From a virus (Duplodnaviria > Caudoviricetes): DNA of 28,528 nt. The first letter of the stretch is position 1. Each line of letters starts with the position of its first letter. This document shows positions 649 through 15,069 of this stretch, in pieces. The stretch lies in IMG/VR virus record IMGVR_UViG_3300032305_001754, positions 1-28,528 of that record. One strand, given 5' to 3'. The notes under the pieces were generated by a model that had not been told where the DNA came from, searched no databases, and worked only from the letters and a program-made list of their open reading frames with translations. Made by a program: the position numbers and the translations under genes.

Positions 649-957
649 TCAGGGGACGTATTCGGCGACGCCCGACAAAGCGGTTCGTCGCCCGCCATCG
701 CTGCTCGTCCAGATCATCTGCCAGCCATAGGAGCCGGCCGGAAGACTTGTCGGAAACGAGAGCGAGACTTGCCCATTCGCGGCGTTGGTCACAGTGGTCG
801 TGATTGGCGACACAATCTGGCCCGTGACGAGCGACATGATCTGCGACGACACGGTGTACGGAGCCAGGGAGACGTCGAAGTCGACGCTGGTCGAGGCCTT
901 GTCGCCGGCCCTGATCTCGACGTTCATCCGGGCGGGCAGTTGCGTGAACGACGACAC
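649..957 (-). CDS. Small beta-rich putative virion/baseplate-type protein
   Basis: 102 aa, LP...GD...DF...G.Y.W...W...RT.L.G pattern typical of small Ig-like phage structural proteins. GTG start overlaps the upstream TAG. Confidence 0.65.
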   Translation of the reverse strand: MSSFTQLPARMNVEIRAGDKASTSVDFDVSLAPYTVSSQIMSLVTGQIVSPITTTVTNAANGQVSLSFPTSLPAGSYGWQMIWTSSDGGRRTALSGVAEYVP

Positions 958-1094: not shown

Positions 1095-1095
1095 G

Positions 1096-1155
1096 TTACT
1101 TGTTCTGTGCCTGCTTGCCGCCGCTCGGCGGGCCTGGGAGCGGCATCCAGTGGGC
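1096..1155 (-). pseudogene. C-terminal remnant of a DUF551-like gene (AHWMPLPGPPSGGKQAQNK*)
   Basis: 1102-1152 is 38/51 identical, ungapped, to 1495-1545, the 3' end of the intact DUF551-like gene. There is no upstream in-frame start. Confidence 0.7.
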
Positions 1156-1163
1156 ATTAGAAG

Positions 1164-1430
1164 TCATCGGGCAGCAGCATCTCGTCTCGCAATCTTCTTG
1201 CCAGCCTCAACGCCAGCAAGGTACGCCGCAGTCAGAACATCGTCTTCGTCCTCTCCTTTGGCTAAATAGACCGCCTCGCAGCGGTCGAACACTTCAGCCA
1301 GCCGGGATCGCCAGAAGGTTAGTTTCTGTCCGCGATGCTTCACAACCAGCGTGATTCTGTCTGTTCGCAGCGGATGCTCCATGTGCCGGTTCTGGGCAGC
1401 ACACAGAGCGCCGTCGTCCTCTTTGCTCAT
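1164..1430 (-). CDS. Hypothetical protein (cassette-like unit)
   Basis: 88 aa, GAGGAG SD, fills the space between the attC-like site and the DUF551 remnant. Confidence 0.7.
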   Translation of the reverse strand: MSKEDDGALCAAQNRHMEHPLRTDRITLVVKHRGQKLTFWRSRLAEVFDRCEAVYLAKGEDEDDVLTAAYLAGVEAGKKIARRDAAAR

Positions 1431-1452
1431 CGTCTTCTCCTCGTACAGGAAG

Positions 1453-1501
1453 CCCTAACCACGCGATGCTGCGGACGAGCCGCAGATTGCTGGCGTTCTG
1501 T
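1453..1501 (+). mobile_element. Compact attC-like (integron cassette) recombination site
   Basis: R'' CCCTAAC, 5-nt spacer CACGC, L'' GAT[G]CTGC, GG[A]C-GA-GCC, L' GCAGATT, 6-nt spacer GCTGGC, R' GTTCTGT. Spacers and both extrahelical bases are at canonical attC positions. Confidence 0.65.
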
Positions 1502-1503
1502 GG

Positions 1504-1845
1504 CTACTTGTCGTCCGCTGGCAGGGGCGGAAGCGGCATCCAGTGCGTGACGTGCTGCTTGCTGCTCAGTGGAGGCAGTCCACTGTCAGGCTCGGCAACC
1601 CAGACCATCACGTCGACGTACCTCGCCGCGCCGGGGATGTCCCGCACCACCAGGACTCGCTGATCCTGGGGCTCCTCATCGGACAGGAGCCGCCACTGGG
1701 CGTGGCCCTTCTCCAGTTCGTCGGCCGCTGCCACCAGTGCGTCTCGCTGCTTCTGCTGGCACTGCTCGGCGTGGGCCAGTCTCTCGACGAGGTCTGTCCC
1801 CATGTGGTAGCCGGCGAGCAGCCTGAGGTCGCTGACGAGACTCAC
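1504..1845 (-). CDS. DUF551-like phage protein
   Basis: W..LSDEEP..RVLV...VTHWMPLPPLP signature. Confidence 0.8.
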   Translation of the reverse strand: MSLVSDLRLLAGYHMGTDLVERLAHAEQCQQKQRDALVAAADELEKGHAQWRLLSDEEPQDQRVLVVRDIPGAARYVDVMVWVAEPDSGLPPLSSKQHVTHWMPLPPLPADDK

Positions 1846-2102
1846 GGATTGTCCCTTCGATTGAACGAGACCGTGGCGTAGGTGCCGACGAACGCGCCGG
1901 CGGCGAGCGGAACGAGGTACAGCGGGTTGGAAGAGTAGGTGATCACGCCGTACGCGAGGAGCGAGTAGAGGAGCGACGAAATCGCTGCCGCAGCCATCGC
2001 GCGGCGACGCTCGACGCAGATGATGTACGCGGCGTAGAGGATGTCCACGGCGACGTAGGTGAGGAAGATGATTCCGGCAGTGAGGGGCGAGAAGTCAGTC
2101 AT
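1842..2102 (-). CDS. Small integral membrane protein (about 3 TM segments)
   Basis: 86 aa, three hydrophobic stretches, 4-nt overlaps with both neighbours. Confidence 0.75.
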   Translation of the reverse strand: MTDFSPLTAGIIFLTYVAVDILYAAYIICVERRRAMAAAAISSLLYSLLAYGVITYSSNPLYLVPLAAGAFVGTYATVSFNRRDNP

Positions 2103-2353
2103 GGCTTCATCCGCTCCAACAGTTCTCGGAGCGCGGCTGCGTATCGCTCAGGCAGTCCGTAGTGCGCAAACCATTGAATGGCGGCTCGCTCCTCGTCGGT
2201 GAGCGTACGTCTCGCCTGCTCCTCCCCCAGGGCGTCTGCGAGCCGTTGGATCATGCAGTCGCGGTGCCACATATGGCACCCGTCGCTATGGGTGCTGACG
2301 CGAGCGGCTTGCTGGTCTCGCCACTCGCGGTAGTCGGCCAGGATGTCTGCCAT
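2099..2353 (-). CDS. Hypothetical phage protein
   Basis: 84 aa with HxxxCHxxHxxC cluster and LTDEERAAI...LRELLER C-terminus. ATGA overlap with the downstream gene. Confidence 0.75.
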   Translation of the reverse strand: MADILADYREWRDQQAARVSTHSDGCHMWHRDCMIQRLADALGEEQARRTLTDEERAAIQWFAHYGLPERYAAALRELLERMKP

Positions 2354-2380
2354 TTTCCATTTTCCAGAACGAGACCCCCC

Positions 2381-2418
2381 ATCGTATCGCCGGCGTCAGT
2401 TGCGTCTACGATTTTTTT
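2381..2418 (-). promoter_or_regulatory. Sigma70-like promoter driving the accessory block
   Basis: A7 tract, TAGACG (2408-2403), 16 nt, TACGAT (2386-2381) in the intergenic gap. Confidence 0.55.
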
Positions 2419-2434
2419 CCACCAGCGATGCTGG

Positions 2435-4012
2435 TCAAGTGACCGTAAAGCCAGCACTCGCCGGGCCTTGCCCAACAGAGTTTGTCGCGCTCATGGTAGC
2501 CATTGCCCCTTGGTAGTCTTGATAGAACCAAGCCACGCCGTTTCCCGCTCCGGGGTTATTTTCCGCTGGCGACAACGCACTGCCGTCGAAGTAGAACGTG
2601 TAGGCAGTGATCGTTGAGTTGCCATTATCGGCGGGGAAGTTGTATTCGATATACGTCCGGTCATTGAATGAATCGTAGTACGCATTGGTGATCGTCGGCG
2701 CGCCCGGCACGGTCGGGGTGTCGTAGTACGCCGTGATCGGCGAACTCCACTCTCCGTTGCCGAGAGAGTTGCTCGCCCGGATTCTGAAGTACCTCGTCGA
2801 GTCTTGCGTCTCGACATTGCGGGATATTGGCGACTGGCTCTGCTGCATTGTTGTCGGGTTGCTGAAAGTAGCCGACGAATCCTCTTGGATTTCGTACCAA
2901 GTGATGCTGCTGCCGCCATTCGCTGGATAAGTCCAGGCCATATTCCACTGGTATGGGTACGATTGGTAGTTCGGCGTAACGCTGAAGTCAGTGATCTGCG
3001 ACGGCGGCGTATTGCTCGCGCTTGCGCTGATGTTCGTGGAAGTCCAAGGGGCATTGCCGATAGCATTCCTGAACCGGACGCGGAAGTAGTAACTGACCCC
3101 GCCAGTGAGTCCGGTGATTTCCTTGCTGAAGTTGAATGACCCCGTGTTCTGATCCGTGAAGTTGAAACTCACCGGGAAGTTCGTGCCGTCGTTGCCATAC
3201 TCAACGTCATACGAAGTGATCGGGGAGTAGTTGGAACTCGGCACGTCGATGCTCAGGATGACTGCGCCTTGGCTCAGGTAAGACGAGTTGGCGCTGGCAC
3301 TTGTTTCGCTCGGGACGTCAGCCACGGTTGCCGTCAGCGTGTCGCTCCACGGGCCGCCTTCAATGCCGCCGTTGTTGGATGCCCGCACCCGGACTTGAAC
3401 CTCCTGCCCGCCGTTCATGGAACTCAGGTCAACTGTGTAGTTGTTCGTGTTTACCGAGAGTGTGGTTTCCATGCCGTTGACGAAGTACGAAACCTCATAG
3501 TCGGTGACGCTCGGCCCGCCGTCATAGGTCGGTTGGTTCCACGCGGCGTAGATGTTGTAGCCCGCGACCGGGGTGGCAGTAAACGCAGTCGGGGCCGATG
3601 GCACGGAGTTAGAGAGCGTGACCATCGGCTGGCCGATTGGATCAGCGGACGGCCCCACGCCGACAGAGTTGACCGCGCGAACGTCAACTTTCACAGACTC
3701 GCCGCCGAGATACAGGGCAGCGAGAACTCCGGGGCTGCTTGCCGCGCTGCCAGCCGCGACCCATGTCGTGCCGCCGTCGCGAGAGTAGTAGATGTTGTAC
3801 CCAGTGATCGGCGAGCCGCCGTTGTTTGGCGCATCCCAATCAACGTCGGCAGCGGCCTGTTGCGTTGTCGATGTGGTCGCGTCGATCCCCGTGACCGCCG
3901 CAGGCACAGTCGCCACGACTGCCGTCCACGCCTCAGCCGCGCCGACATAGACCTTGCTCGGCGTGTTGCTGCCGAGGCGAAACGAGGCGACGGTCGTGCT
4001 GCCAATCTTCAT
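2435..4012 (-). CDS. Fibronectin type III repeat protein (5 FN3 domains), likely virion adhesin
   Basis: Start re-called at ATG 4012 (MKIGSTT). Five P.AP...W..P..GGS.IT.Y...RA.N..G.G..S-type units. Confidence 0.9.
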   Translation of the reverse strand: MKIGSTTVASFRLGSNTPSKVYVGAAEAWTAVVATVPAAVTGIDATTSTTQQAAADVDWDAPNNGGSPITGYNIYYSRDGGTTWVAAGSAASSPGVLAALYLGGESVKVDVRAVNSVGVGPSADPIGQPMVTLSNSVPSAPTAFTATPVAGYNIYAAWNQPTYDGGPSVTDYEVSYFVNGMETTLSVNTNNYTVDLSSMNGGQEVQVRVRASNNGGIEGGPWSDTLTATVADVPSETSASANSSYLSQGAVILSIDVPSSNYSPITSYDVEYGNDGTNFPVSFNFTDQNTGSFNFSKEITGLTGGVSYYFRVRFRNAIGNAPWTSTNISASASNTPPSQITDFSVTPNYQSYPYQWNMAWTYPANGGSSITWYEIQEDSSATFSNPTTMQQSQSPISRNVETQDSTRYFRIRASNSLGNGEWSSPITAYYDTPTVPGAPTITNAYYDSFNDRTYIEYNFPADNGNSTITAYTFYFDGSALSPAENNPGAGNGVAWFYQDYQGAMATMSATNSVGQGPASAGFTVT

Positions 4013-4019
4013 GCTAGTC

Positions 4020-4814
4020 TCATGCTGAGTCGGGGAACGCTGCTGTCGGCGGCGTAAAGTTTGCTGTGTAGCGCGCGGCCTTCGTAATCCGGAAGTCGTC
4101 GATGCTCCCCCGGAACCCGTAGATGCCACCCGCCTCACTGTTTCCGCCAACTCTCACTGCGTTTCCTGAGAGAGTCGGTGATGTTTCACCGGAGGCAGTT
4201 TCGTTTCCGTTGCGGTACAACCTGATGACGCCGCCCGAGAGAACGAGCGCGTAATGTACCCATTCGTTGGACGGTAGATTCGAAGACTCGGAACATAAAG
4301 CCTCGCCGCTGCTCGCATACACCGTCACGCGGCCGCCAGCAATCGTGTGCTTGCCGAAAAACAGGGAACTACTTGTCGAAAAGGAGTCGTAGTTGGCAAA
4401 CATGATCTCGATGGCATTTCGGCCGCCGTCAGTAGAGTAATACCAGCCTTCGATAGTCCACGCGGAAAGTCCGCTGAGTGACAAGTCTGCCGCAGAGGCC
4501 GCCAGATGACTGCTGCCGTCAAGAGACAAACTCTTCCCACCGAACTTGCTCTGCGCTGCAGACTGCGTTGCAGTGCCAGCCGCTGTGATCGTTTTCGTCA
4601 GCGGCGACGAATCGACAAAGTTACTTCCTGAGCCATCCATGTGCAGCAGTAGCGACACGCTGCCGAAAAGCGGATCGCTGGTTGTCGGCCACGTTCCTGC
4701 CCGATTCAGCGACTCTGCTTCGCGCAACGTCCATACGCCGCTCGCCGCAGAGTTGGTTGTCGTTGCCGCAGGCACGCGCCGAAAACCGATGTATCCGCCG
4801 GGGAGTCTTCTCAT
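4020..4814 (-). CDS. LamG/concanavalin A-like lectin domain tail protein
   Basis: DP.F..VSLLLHMDG, SKFGG.S, WTIEGW, WVHYALV, IDDFRITKAARYTANFTPPTAAFP motifs. Confidence 0.9.
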   Translation of the reverse strand: MRRLPGGYIGFRRVPAATTTNSAASGVWTLREAESLNRAGTWPTTSDPLFGSVSLLLHMDGSGSNFVDSSPLTKTITAAGTATQSAAQSKFGGKSLSLDGSSHLAASAADLSLSGLSAWTIEGWYYSTDGGRNAIEIMFANYDSFSTSSSLFFGKHTIAGGRVTVYASSGEALCSESSNLPSNEWVHYALVLSGGVIRLYRNGNETASGETSPTLSGNAVRVGGNSEAGGIYGFRGSIDDFRITKAARYTANFTPPTAAFPDSA

Positions 4815-4829: not shown

Positions 4830-5492
4830 CTACGCATCGAAAACATCAAACCGGGAAGCACTTGCGCCCGCCGGGCCGAGGAGCAATCCGGTGTAGGTGC
4901 CATACGAAAAGTCGCTGTTGACCACGGACAGGATTTGAGTGTTGTTGTAAAACCCGGTAAGCGTGGAGCCACTGACGCGGATGCCAAACGTGTCGCCGAC
5001 CCGCATCGTCGGAATGGATGCACTTGTCAACGTGGCACTGGTGTATTGGTAACTGCGGTACAGGGATGCGGTCTTTGTCGCGGTTACATTCAATCCATAC
5101 CCAATGTGGTAGTTACCCGGATACTCCTCATAAGCCGTTGTCCGCGCCAGCACGGCAAAACTCCCAACCGCACCCACAACGCATTGGGCATAGAAGTTCG
5201 TCCTGCCTGTGTTCAGGACGTTGCCGCAGTTGCCGTAGGCGTCTGCTGTTCCGCGCACGGCAGACGATGAGCCGGAGCGAGCGAGACTGCTGGGGGAGTC
5301 TTCGACCACAAAGTCCCCCCATCGCGGAGAGTGCGACGCCGAAGAGAGCAGTACGCCAGCAGACCCCGCGAACGTGTCTGACAAAAATGGGATTCTGATC
5401 ACGGGCGTATCGCTCAGTCCCCACACGCCACTGGCGGCAGGCGAGCCGCGACGTTCGCGGTTGAATCCGACGTAGCCACCAACCGGCCTCAT
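4830..5492 (-). CDS. Putative tail-associated beta-sandwich/lectin-like protein
   Basis: Shares the N-terminal GGY(V/I)GF...AASGVW.L motif with 4020-4814. S/T/G/Y-rich beta-strand body. Confidence 0.75.
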   Translation of the reverse strand: MRPVGGYVGFNRERRGSPAASGVWGLSDTPVIRIPFLSDTFAGSAGVLLSSASHSPRWGDFVVEDSPSSLARSGSSSAVRGTADAYGNCGNVLNTGRTNFYAQCVVGAVGSFAVLARTTAYEEYPGNYHIGYGLNVTATKTASLYRSYQYTSATLTSASIPTMRVGDTFGIRVSGSTLTGFYNNTQILSVVNSDFSYGTYTGLLLGPAGASASRFDVFDA

Positions 5493-5944
5493 GCGTCACC
5501 TTCAGCGGAAGCCGCCGCGCGTGCCGCACCATACGCGAGCATCATGGCCTCAAACTCCGCGAACGTGAGCGTGTGCCGCTCGCCCGCCATGTCAGTCACC
5601 ACGCAGGGCTGCGTCGCTCCCAACTGGCTCGCCCTCGCGGCGAGAACGTAGAGTCCGGTGAGCAGTGCCACATCATCGGCCTGCCAGCCAAGTCGCCATC
5701 CGCCAGCCGTCTCATAGCCCGCCTCCAGCCACGACGGTTCCGGCGGTGGCGGAAACATCGCGTCCAAGTCGGCCTGCGTCAGCGTCGATCGCGACCAGCC
5801 AGCGTCGGCGAGAATGTCGGCGTTCTCGGCCCACTGCGACGGGTCGGTTCGCGTACTGCCGTCCGTCAGCCTGACGCGGAACGGCAGTTCCAGAGCCGCC
5901 GCGCCGCTCGCATCTCGCCAGCAGGGATCGTTCAGTTCGGGCAT
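5489..5944 (-). CDS. Putative tail fibre assembly/chaperone protein
   Basis: LPFRVRL.DGSTRTD N-terminus, poly-Pro linker, DUF4376-like C-terminus, position among fibre genes. Confidence 0.6.
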   Translation of the reverse strand: MPELNDPCWRDASGAAALELPFRVRLTDGSTRTDPSQWAENADILADAGWSRSTLTQADLDAMFPPPPEPSWLEAGYETAGGWRLGWQADDVALLTGLYVLAARASQLGATQPCVVTDMAGERHTLTFAEFEAMMLAYGAARAAASAEGDA

Positions 5945-14264: not shown

Positions 14265-14552
14265 TTATCGATCCCATCGATCGAGAATCTCTTCCGCCTG
14301 GGCCTTGCTGGTCACCACCTCGGCGACGGCGCCGCCGACGGTTCGCAGTTCCTCCATCACATGAACCTGGAGCGGCGTCGGCTTTTTGCCCGGTTGCTTC
14401 ACCTCCAGGAACACGGCCCGTCCGTTCTTGATGCACAACACGTCGGGAATGCCGGGCCGCTGGAAGGCGCCGCCGGCGACCTTGAGAACCCACCAGCCGC
14501 GAGCCTTCGCGGACTGTTGGATCGACTTCGTGATGGTGGACTCAAGGGCCAC
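14265..14552 (-). CDS. VRR-NUC domain nuclease (Holliday junction resolvase-like)
   Basis: LES.I, GIPDVL, FLEVKQPGKKPTPLQ. GGAGGG SD. Confidence 0.9.
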   Translation of the reverse strand: MALESTITKSIQQSAKARGWWVLKVAGGAFQRPGIPDVLCIKNGRAVFLEVKQPGKKPTPLQVHVMEELRTVGGAVAEVVTSKAQAEEILDRWDR

Positions 14553-15069
14553 GGCGACCCTCCCTCCACGCTCGCTTCATGGACTCCGAGATTTTCGCTC
14601 GCGTCTCCTTGCTGAGGACTCGCCCACGGTTGGCGTACTTCATCGCGAGGCTGATCTTTTCGCGGGTGGACGGGTCGAGGTGGATGTCTCGCATCCGAGC
14701 GCTGATCAACTCGCGAGTCTCGGGCGAGTGCGTCCTGCCTTGGCGATAGTCGCGAAGCCGCTGCCTCGATTCCTCGGTGTGCCTGTGGCCGTAGCCGCCC
14801 CGGCCGCCCGTCTTGATGTTGTAGGTGTCCTCCCGTTTGCAGAACTCCTCCGTGACGACCTCGGCCTCGCGGGTGTAGGCCTCGTCGAGCGAGCCGCAGA
14901 CAAAGAGCGTTCGTCGCTCGAAGGCTTCGGCGCCGTGCTTCGCAATCGCCGCGAGCAGGGCCGTGCCGGAGCCCAGGTATCCGTCGAAGTCTTCTCCGTC
15001 CTGGAGGTGGACTCCGACGTAGACCTTGCCGCTGACTAGGTTGCGGGTCTCATAGACGATCCATCGCAC
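14542..15069 (-). CDS. GIY-YIG (Seg-like) homing endonuclease with NUMOD3-type repeats
   Basis: IVYETRNLVSGKVYVG, YLGSG, E...YN..GG, then HTEESRQRL / HSPETRELIS / STREKIS / SKETRAKIS. Confidence 0.9.
   Translation of the reverse strand: MRWIVYETRNLVSGKVYVGVHLQDGEDFDGYLGSGTALLAAIAKHGAEAFERRTLFVCGSLDEAYTREAEVVTEEFCKREDTYNIKTGGRGGYGHRHTEESRQRLRDYRQGRTHSPETRELISARMRDIHLDPSTREKISLAMKYANRGRVLSKETRAKISESMKRAWREGRRGP

Follow-up and report, generated by a model that had tools for sequence, protein, structure and literature searches.

The window analysed here, a stretch of 28,528 nucleotides, is a linear virus record of a freshwater phage that is approximately 29% complete and whose minus-strand gene set includes tail, methyltransferase, helicase and exonuclease genes. 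Between an FN3-repeat minor tail gene (2435-4150, minus strand; Pfam fn3, phrog_6977) and another structural-type gene lie four small minus-strand ORFs, at 1164-1430, 1504-1845, 1842-2102 and 2099-2353, here called genes A to D, which agrees with a preliminary description of this DNA as a tail module interrupted by four small genes. A phage gene of 102 amino acids (649-957, minus strand; phrog_1084) flanks the locus on its downstream side, and no relatives of the FN3 tail gene were found in the viral contigs searched. The tail module also contains a leucine-rich-repeat protein (3-698) that is open at the contig end, and at 14265-15069 two adjoining ORFs match endonuclease and homing-endonuclease PHROGs amid methyltransferase genes.

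Gene A encodes a protein of 88 amino acids belonging to no family, with all of its matches in the Atlas under 0.8, and there are 23 nt between its start and the R'' box of a minimal attC-type site of 49 bp (1453-1501, plus strand), relative to which the gene is inverted. It occurs together with the attC in L061/L260 and without it in L261-L263. Gene B, of about 100-113 amino acids, is DUF551-like (match below the Pfam cut-off) and has the 3' end typical of a cassette but no attC of its own; its 98% identical counterpart in L266/L267 lies behind a different attC, and neither gene B nor a pattern of the left flank was found in the metagenome contigs searched. Gene C encodes a hydrophobic protein of 86 amino acids, overlaps each of its neighbours by 4 nt and has relatives outside cassette boundaries, while gene D (84 amino acids), judging by the sequences of relatives, is the first gene of a fixed block and is preceded in those relatives by a non-attC hairpin or other sequence. 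The order B-C-D, with each overlap being four bases, is unchanged in L267, and these genes are a fixed, translationally coupled block and not a three-gene cassette.

Such a cassette, running from 1495 to 2370, had been proposed from the pairing of GTTCTG at 1495 with CAGAAC at 2365-2370, and we rejected it. GTTCTGT and CCAGAAC (2364-2370, plus strand) match at 3/4 variable positions, a level that 148 of the 338 plus-strand GTT sites in the window reach within 200-900 nt and which is therefore that of chance. No attC body follows 2370, L267 diverges from the window at 2374 and not at the triplet, and other relatives read AAT there, so that CCAGAAC is not a working cassette end.

Upstream of gene D a candidate sigma-70-type promoter (TAGACG, 16 nt, TACGAT; 2381-2408, minus strand) has 8 of 12 consensus bases and was not called by a promoter scanner; both hexamers are unchanged in L267, in which 3 of the 16 spacer bases differ. 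As a promoter it would be predicted to transcribe D, C, B and A, towards the attI end of the locus. The far end of the arrays in L253-L257 and L259, likewise upstream of gene D, has a conserved hairpin that pairs perfectly, with neither bulges nor a GTT; it may be a terminator or an attC that has become immobile.

The 49-bp site consists of an R'' box (CCCTAAC, 1453-1459), 5 nt, an L'' box (GATGCTGC, 1465-1472), GGAC, GAGCC, an L' box (GCAGATT, 1482-1488), 6 nt and an R' box (GTTCTGT, 1495-1501), with the crossover G|TT at 1495/1496 and extra bases at 1468, within L'', and at 1475. No other short-loop site of this geometry exists on either strand of the window, and in 30 dinucleotide shuffles the mean number of such sites was 0.0 (0.37 when any loop length was allowed); the full attC geometry first described for this element is thus upheld, and by its sequence 1453-1501 is a real attC-type site. 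The "bulged G" reported in L'' is present, but on the top strand, and in the strand that should recombine the first extra base is therefore a C. The site is damaged at 1488, a T in the window and a C in all 114 pattern matches listed, though the pattern allowed T. Its L'' and L' boxes pair at 6/7 positions (7/7 in most of the family) and the probability of the recombinogenic fold on the bottom strand is 0.015 against a family median of 0.50, the lowest of 96 sites.

One might also read the element as an ordinary RNA hairpin, a processing or attenuation signal before small early genes in which the attC geometry has arisen by chance. It does lie in the leader of the gene A transcript and, taken alone, is a weak hairpin whose fold is unremarkable against shuffles (z -0.6 for the bottom strand and -2.1 for the top strand), but an Rfam search matched no family, and a hairpin in RNA would leave unexplained the fixed spacing of AAC and GTT, the offset complementarity, the anchoring at attI and the G|TT breakpoints that are described below. 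We consider this explanation largely refuted and highly improbable; the attC-type site may have a secondary role in RNA.

Cassette arrays with short attC-type sites in related phages

Further copies of the element were looked for with a pattern made up of the L boxes and GTT only, the AAC of R'' not being included, and at least 129 viral loci matched, corresponding to an estimated 190 or so stretches. AAC lies exactly at the R'' position in 111 of the 130 distinct viral matches listed (114 with three locus-edge matches). The free A/T positions of the stem covary among the matches listed (91 A/T, 20 T/A, 3 T/T and 0 A/A of 114), such that 111 of 114 related and hence not independent sequences are matched at the two free positions. 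By length the 222 distinct sites in the viral DNA analysed comprise 96 of 48-51 bp, 29 intermediate and 97 long ones, and 46 of 69 long sites contain an in-frame ATG with an SD-like motif. As attC sites are reported to span 57-141 bp, or 56-141 bp in mobile integrons (Loot et al. 2017, PMC5371416, in the text available), the 48-51-bp class falls below the published range for class 1 and Vibrio attC sites, the minimum of which is 56 or 57 bp. A CALIN comprises at least two close attC sites without an integrase; the window has one attC, and its relatives have 8 in L267 and up to 14 in G013, the largest array.

The preliminary description had taken as a hallmark of cassettes that the outer boxes of a site pair not with each other but with those of neighbouring units, and in the relatives this holds. 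Across 102 adjacent pairs, a set that includes a few unrelated arrays and whose members are not independent, the offset R'/R'' complementarity is 3.45 of 4, compared with 2.20 within sites and 2.02 when permuted, and none of 20,000 permutations gave a value as high. Among 122 viral units no longer than 600 nt, many of them related, complementarity is 4 of 4 in 98. The bottom-strand ORF is the longer one in 109 of these units, as opposed to 18 of 83 planctomycete chromosomal units, and stops within 12 nt of GTT in 107, orientation being judged by the longest ORF and not by a gene finder. The reverse orientation of cassette genes claimed for the window is thus a property of the phage group, and it differs from the top-strand genes, read from a promoter at attI, of a complete integron. 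No clear host-type top-strand cassette was seen by eye inside a phage array among the units listed.

In intact relatives an attI-like site is followed by cassettes, each of which has G|TT at one end and the G of its own attC at the other. The start of the gene falls within this attC or beside it and its stop at the far GTT, and the attC body stays with the unit on the R'' side. Cassette proteins share modular ends (e.g. L001, L021, L267), including an LTDEERE-like C-terminal segment, DUF551 HWMPLP ends and N-termini encoded by the attC loop, which suggests that new genes arise by exchange between cassettes. Some of the larger cassettes resemble DNA methyltransferases or a metallophosphoesterase, and those of L317 and L324 contain tRNA-like stretches on the bottom strand that were not called by ARAGORN.

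The identity of site bodies is 0.78 between pairs with the same left flank (62 pairs), 0.40 between those with the same right flank (51 pairs) and 0.38 at random, the pairs again being related and not independent. Because the body co-segregates with the left flank and not with the right, the crossover is placed at R', and a crossover at R'' was rejected. On sequence grounds this fits the position predicted by the extra-helical bases, since the arm carrying the first extra base sets both the strand and the crossover; in VCR, the cost of replacing G by C at this base is only 2.7-fold (Bouvier et al. 2009, PMC2727003, in the text available for both statements).

The same locus in relatives and its decay in the window

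In a comparison that covers essentially one genotype, L267 (identical to L266) is 98.4% identical to the window over 392-1097, continues after 1097 into attI and eight cassettes (seven found by the scanner, the eighth by eye) and rejoins the window exactly at the GTT at 1495, with 97.6% identity, behind a different, long attC. Breakpoints at G|TT, which had been anticipated for relatives of this phage, are accordingly found both in this junction and in the R' crossover given by the co-segregation of site bodies. A contig of run X4 returns to the window sequence at 1495 in letters identical to those of L267, and for that reason probably represents the same genotype. Among the contigs compared, neither an excision circle nor a circular-cassette junction was seen.

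In the window (1095-1101, plus strand) the left flank ends at 1097 and is followed by a 4-nt stump; the attI-like sequence of approximately 120 bp present at this point in relatives has been lost. In L267 the GTT of attI lies 123 nt beyond the left-flank end, and in contigs of runs X3, X5, X6 and X7, which come from three studies, the match to the window likewise stops at 1097, where attI sequence takes over. On an attI profile built after 5 of 37 candidates had been dropped by eye, position 1102 of the window scores -11.8 bits (rank 24 of 665 GTT sites) and L267 scores 31.5 bits, so that an attI heads the array in relatives and none does in the window.

A third unit had been proposed to begin at 1102. 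The junction is real, in that 25 of 31 BLAST rows over 1098-1154 begin exactly there (the loci being redundant), but it is the attI-side junction of a remnant and not a working unit. It consists of a G|TT junction and the 3' end of a DUF551-type cassette gene (1102-1154, plus strand; DUF551 E 0.011, below the cut-off). The GTTCTGTG words at 1102 and 1495 open a 51-nt direct repeat (second copy at 1495-1545) representing the 3' ends of two DUF551-like genes, both below the Pfam cut-off, and a deletion of about 250 nt has left a mini-ORF of 23 codons (1096-1167, minus strand).

The remaining pairing proposed for the window, between CCCTAAC at 1453 and ATTAGAA at 1156-1162 (plus strand), involves a partner without the crossover G and with Watson-Crick pairing at 2/4 positions, and the best GTT partner for CCCTAAC between 700 and 1452 is no better than 2/4. 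Hence the pairings proposed within the window itself lack the offset complementarity that is seen in the family and at the 1495 junction. The contig of run X2, a run belonging to the study of the window's probable source run, has the same loss of attI as the window but carries about 250 extra bases at 1152-1154, which is why ATTAGAA may be the R' box stump of a deleted attC; contig pieces from X2 and X3 begin at 1152 with one mismatch, as would be expected of a former R' box, and the 1157 junction sequence was not found in the genomes searched.

Compared with its relatives the window is, by sequence, a relic in which attI has been lost and one attC kept, in a damaged state. Deletions would have removed attI and all but one attC in this genome, with the consequence that shuffling at this locus has probably stopped, and the function of the array appears to have been lost here. 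A working three-unit array in the window is contradicted by these data. On its own the window is neither a CALIN nor a complete integron; it is a decayed member of a group of integrase-less, reverse-polarity phage arrays with a host-type attI.

Not all exchange at these sites need be site-specific. The 6-nt spacer adjoining R' matches in 14 of the 62 same-left pairs, so that homologous exchange within the site probably also occurs. Taken further, the hairpins would be conserved linkers between which genes are swapped by RecA or a phage recombinase, and their attC look would be inherited from captured host sites and disused. The near identity of the short sites, with one loop common to 52 of 96, would suit this idea, as would pairs that break inside the site (L005 vs L058; R' spacer common to 14 of 62); in addition the window's own rearrangements have an illegitimate look, and it encodes an exonuclease VIII-like protein. 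However, breaks at G|TT also join unlike bodies, long and short at 1495 and host-type and phage-type in L176 (see below), breaks occur at attI as well, which has no homology to attC, and both the offset complementarity and the covariation of the stem are maintained. We regard homologous swapping as quite unlikely to be the main process, and favour site-specific recombination of the cassettes by an integron integrase.

A shared attI-like site and the probable recombinase

The conserved site upstream of the first cassette has a AAACACTG-like core before GTT and a GTTATC-like repeat further up. A pattern for attI only was found at 38 viral loci, of which 28 are followed by an attC, the first cassette having 4 of 4 complementarity in 26 of these 28; in four others no attC follows over at least 600 nt, and for six there is too little DNA. 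In genomes the pattern was found at 32 loci, most of them without a following attC (20 with at least 600 nt) and probably due to chance, whereas the four matches followed by a detected attC are all on Pirellulales contigs. A strict attI pattern gave no match in the viral contigs searched. The same or a similar attI lies just behind an integron integrase gene in L298 (Pirellulales), L291 and L201 (Pirellulales), with integrase scores of 371-475 bits against TIGR02249 (cut-off 265), and the site behind intI in L201 scores 21.2 bits on the phage attI profile. In all three (L298:2965-4031, L291:2900-4031, L201:375-1560) intI points towards attI, on the array strand and not divergently, and the L298 integrase gene seems to be without its N-terminal part. 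Chromosomal attI sites with cassettes and no intI within 4 kb upstream were observed in Pirellulales L269, L274 and L281 (around 4025), and attI-headed arrays without an integrase thus occur in hosts too.

Certain phage cassettes have the attI core, and no attC, at their end (L252/L324, L261, L305, L329/L330). They resemble the delta-attI cassettes of integrons of classes 1 and 2, in which the last bases of attI stand in place of the attC (PMC12901181, in the text available), with the difference that here these ends are in phages, adjoin inverted genes and are known from sequence. L252/L253 was considered as an empty array and rejected, as an upstream attI with cassettes lies on the same contig and the junction is of the delta-attI type.

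The preliminary description noted no IntI-type recombinase in the window and invoked that of a host or a distant one. None was indeed found in the window, although this phage may encode one outside the record, whose completeness is about 29%. The intI that a complete integron has of its own was likewise not found above the TIGR02249 cut-off in any of 40 array-bearing phage records, including 8 near-complete ones, or by tblastn in the 38 viral attI loci. By comparison IntI is present in 12 of 19 genomes with the attC pattern. A Cyanobium contig (L176; recR, lipA) has an intact IntI (457 bits). At L176:5361-6401 it also carries three inverted cassettes of the phage type, one of which has a 49-bp attC; they are bordered by a host-type attC on one side and a mazEF-like unit on the other, each of the two ends falls at G|TT, and two mazEF-like units follow these cassettes. 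Furthermore, on a Pirellulales chromosomal contig (L162, with aminotransferase, MFS and creatininase neighbours) the first cassette after attI (5102-5516) is an inverted one of phage type; over 219 nt it shares 94.5% identity with a phage cassette, and top-strand cassettes come next. No intI was seen beside this array. L176 and L162 are single assemblies and could be chimeric. The presence of phage-type inverted cassettes inside two bacterial integron-type arrays makes host IntI the likely enzyme, as does the shared attI; of the two sources originally suggested the host is therefore favoured, an IntI of the phage group itself not having been found in the 40 records.

A competing candidate is a tyrosine recombinase of about 300 amino acids encoded by the phages themselves. 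PF00589 matches occur in 15 of the 40 array-bearing records and 6 of the 8 near-complete ones, 14 of the 15 proteins being alike by eye (unaligned), and in G004 the gene lies 1.3 kb from the array. Proteins of this kind with 280-340 amino acids (L131-L144), distant from both XerC/D and IntI, were seen in 14 of the 40 records. None of the 8 that were scanned matches the integron-integrase model, however, and over 11 linear records in which it was mapped the gene is 1.3-33 kb from the array, as that of an ordinary prophage integrase might be. Moreover the phage attI matches sites that adjoin true intI genes, and phage cassettes are found in IntI arrays. Recombination by this enzyme is in our view unlikely, and host IntI is retained as the probable recombinase. 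From the same sequence comparisons we infer that the host belongs to the Planctomycetota and likely to the Pirellulales.

Known systems and biological significance

Clusters of attC sites without an integrase (CALINs) in phage genomes, and recombination of 5 of 6 tested phage attC sites with attI1 by IntI1, are already published in the available text of Qi et al. 2023 (PMC9892861). The arrays described here are similar in being integrase-less attC clusters and in their methyltransferase-like cargo (by eye). They differ in opening with a host-type attI and in having their genes on the bottom strand, the arrays of Qi et al. being same-direction and typical of bacterial ones, with divergent sites in one phage; systematically inverted genes, start codons inside attC or sites below 56 bp are not reported in the available text of that study. 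Chromosomal integrons of Planctomycetota (L145-L192, L201, L298) have the same type of attC, with G and A as extra bases on the top strand, similar L boxes and the same offset complementarity, and in Pirellulales an attI matching that of the phages lies beside IntI. L148, L149 and L169, which have no AAC box, were set aside. These host arrays in contrast have top-strand genes, sites mostly of 58-62 bp or more and their own intI. Like the attC sites of class 1 and Vibrio integrons (PMC2727003; PMC5371416; PMC7439510, the last, Nivina 2020, covering general attC features; available text in each case), the phage sites have R and L boxes, an unpaired central spacer and two extra-helical bases on the R''-L'' arm which determine the strand and place the crossover in R'. 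On the bottom strand the first of these bases is C in the phage sites and G in those of class 1 and Vibrio integrons.

The literature searched, which was thin on subscription journals, yielded no account of phage arrays that are headed by attI and systematically inverted, and the supplement of Qi et al. may list some; nothing on inverted cassettes was found in the available text of PMC9024848, PMC11551772 and bioRxiv 10.1101/2025.06.18.660453.

The explanation we prefer, with a probability of roughly 0.8, is that the site is a damaged attC of a phage-borne, integrase-less integron platform with genes on the strand opposite to that used in bacteria, and one likely to use the IntI of a planctomycete (likely Pirellulales) host. 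Host IntI would cleave the folded bottom strand at R', cassettes would be excised by attC x attC recombination and inserted at the phage attI, and a phage promoter at the far end of the array would read the bottom strand, such that a newly inserted cassette would be added to the operon at its 3' end. Phage shuffling of accessory genes as reverse cassettes, as initially proposed, would accordingly hold for the phage group, the window itself being a remnant. As far as can be judged from sequence these arrays work like an integron cassette array, yet they are not complete integrons.

Integrons have been regarded as bacterial devices and, of late, as stores of anti-phage genes. The origin of integron cassettes is, to our knowledge, an open question. 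The window matters mainly as an example of the decay of such an array. The 48-51-bp sites lower the apparent minimum size of attC, and the phage cassette pool may escape tools whose detection is tuned to longer sites. The phage attI, the 49-bp attC and a Pirellulales IntI are defined substrates for a direct test.

In these phages the insertion site and the cassettes are kept but, in the records searched, not the enzyme, with the attI sequence of the host being used and gene polarity reversed, and phage cassettes turn up inside bacterial arrays. A broader and tentative proposal, which we hold to be possible though somewhat doubtful, is that freshwater Planctomycetota phages run integrase-less reverse integrons in which host IntI is hijacked, the cassette pool is common with chromosomal integrons, no natural class of attC is smaller than the 48-51-bp sites, long sites also serve as translation starts and the reversed polarity acts as a firewall. 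If the last were true, host defence cassettes caught at a phage attI would lie antisense to the promoter of the phage, while phage genes caught by the host would lie antisense to the host cassette promoter.
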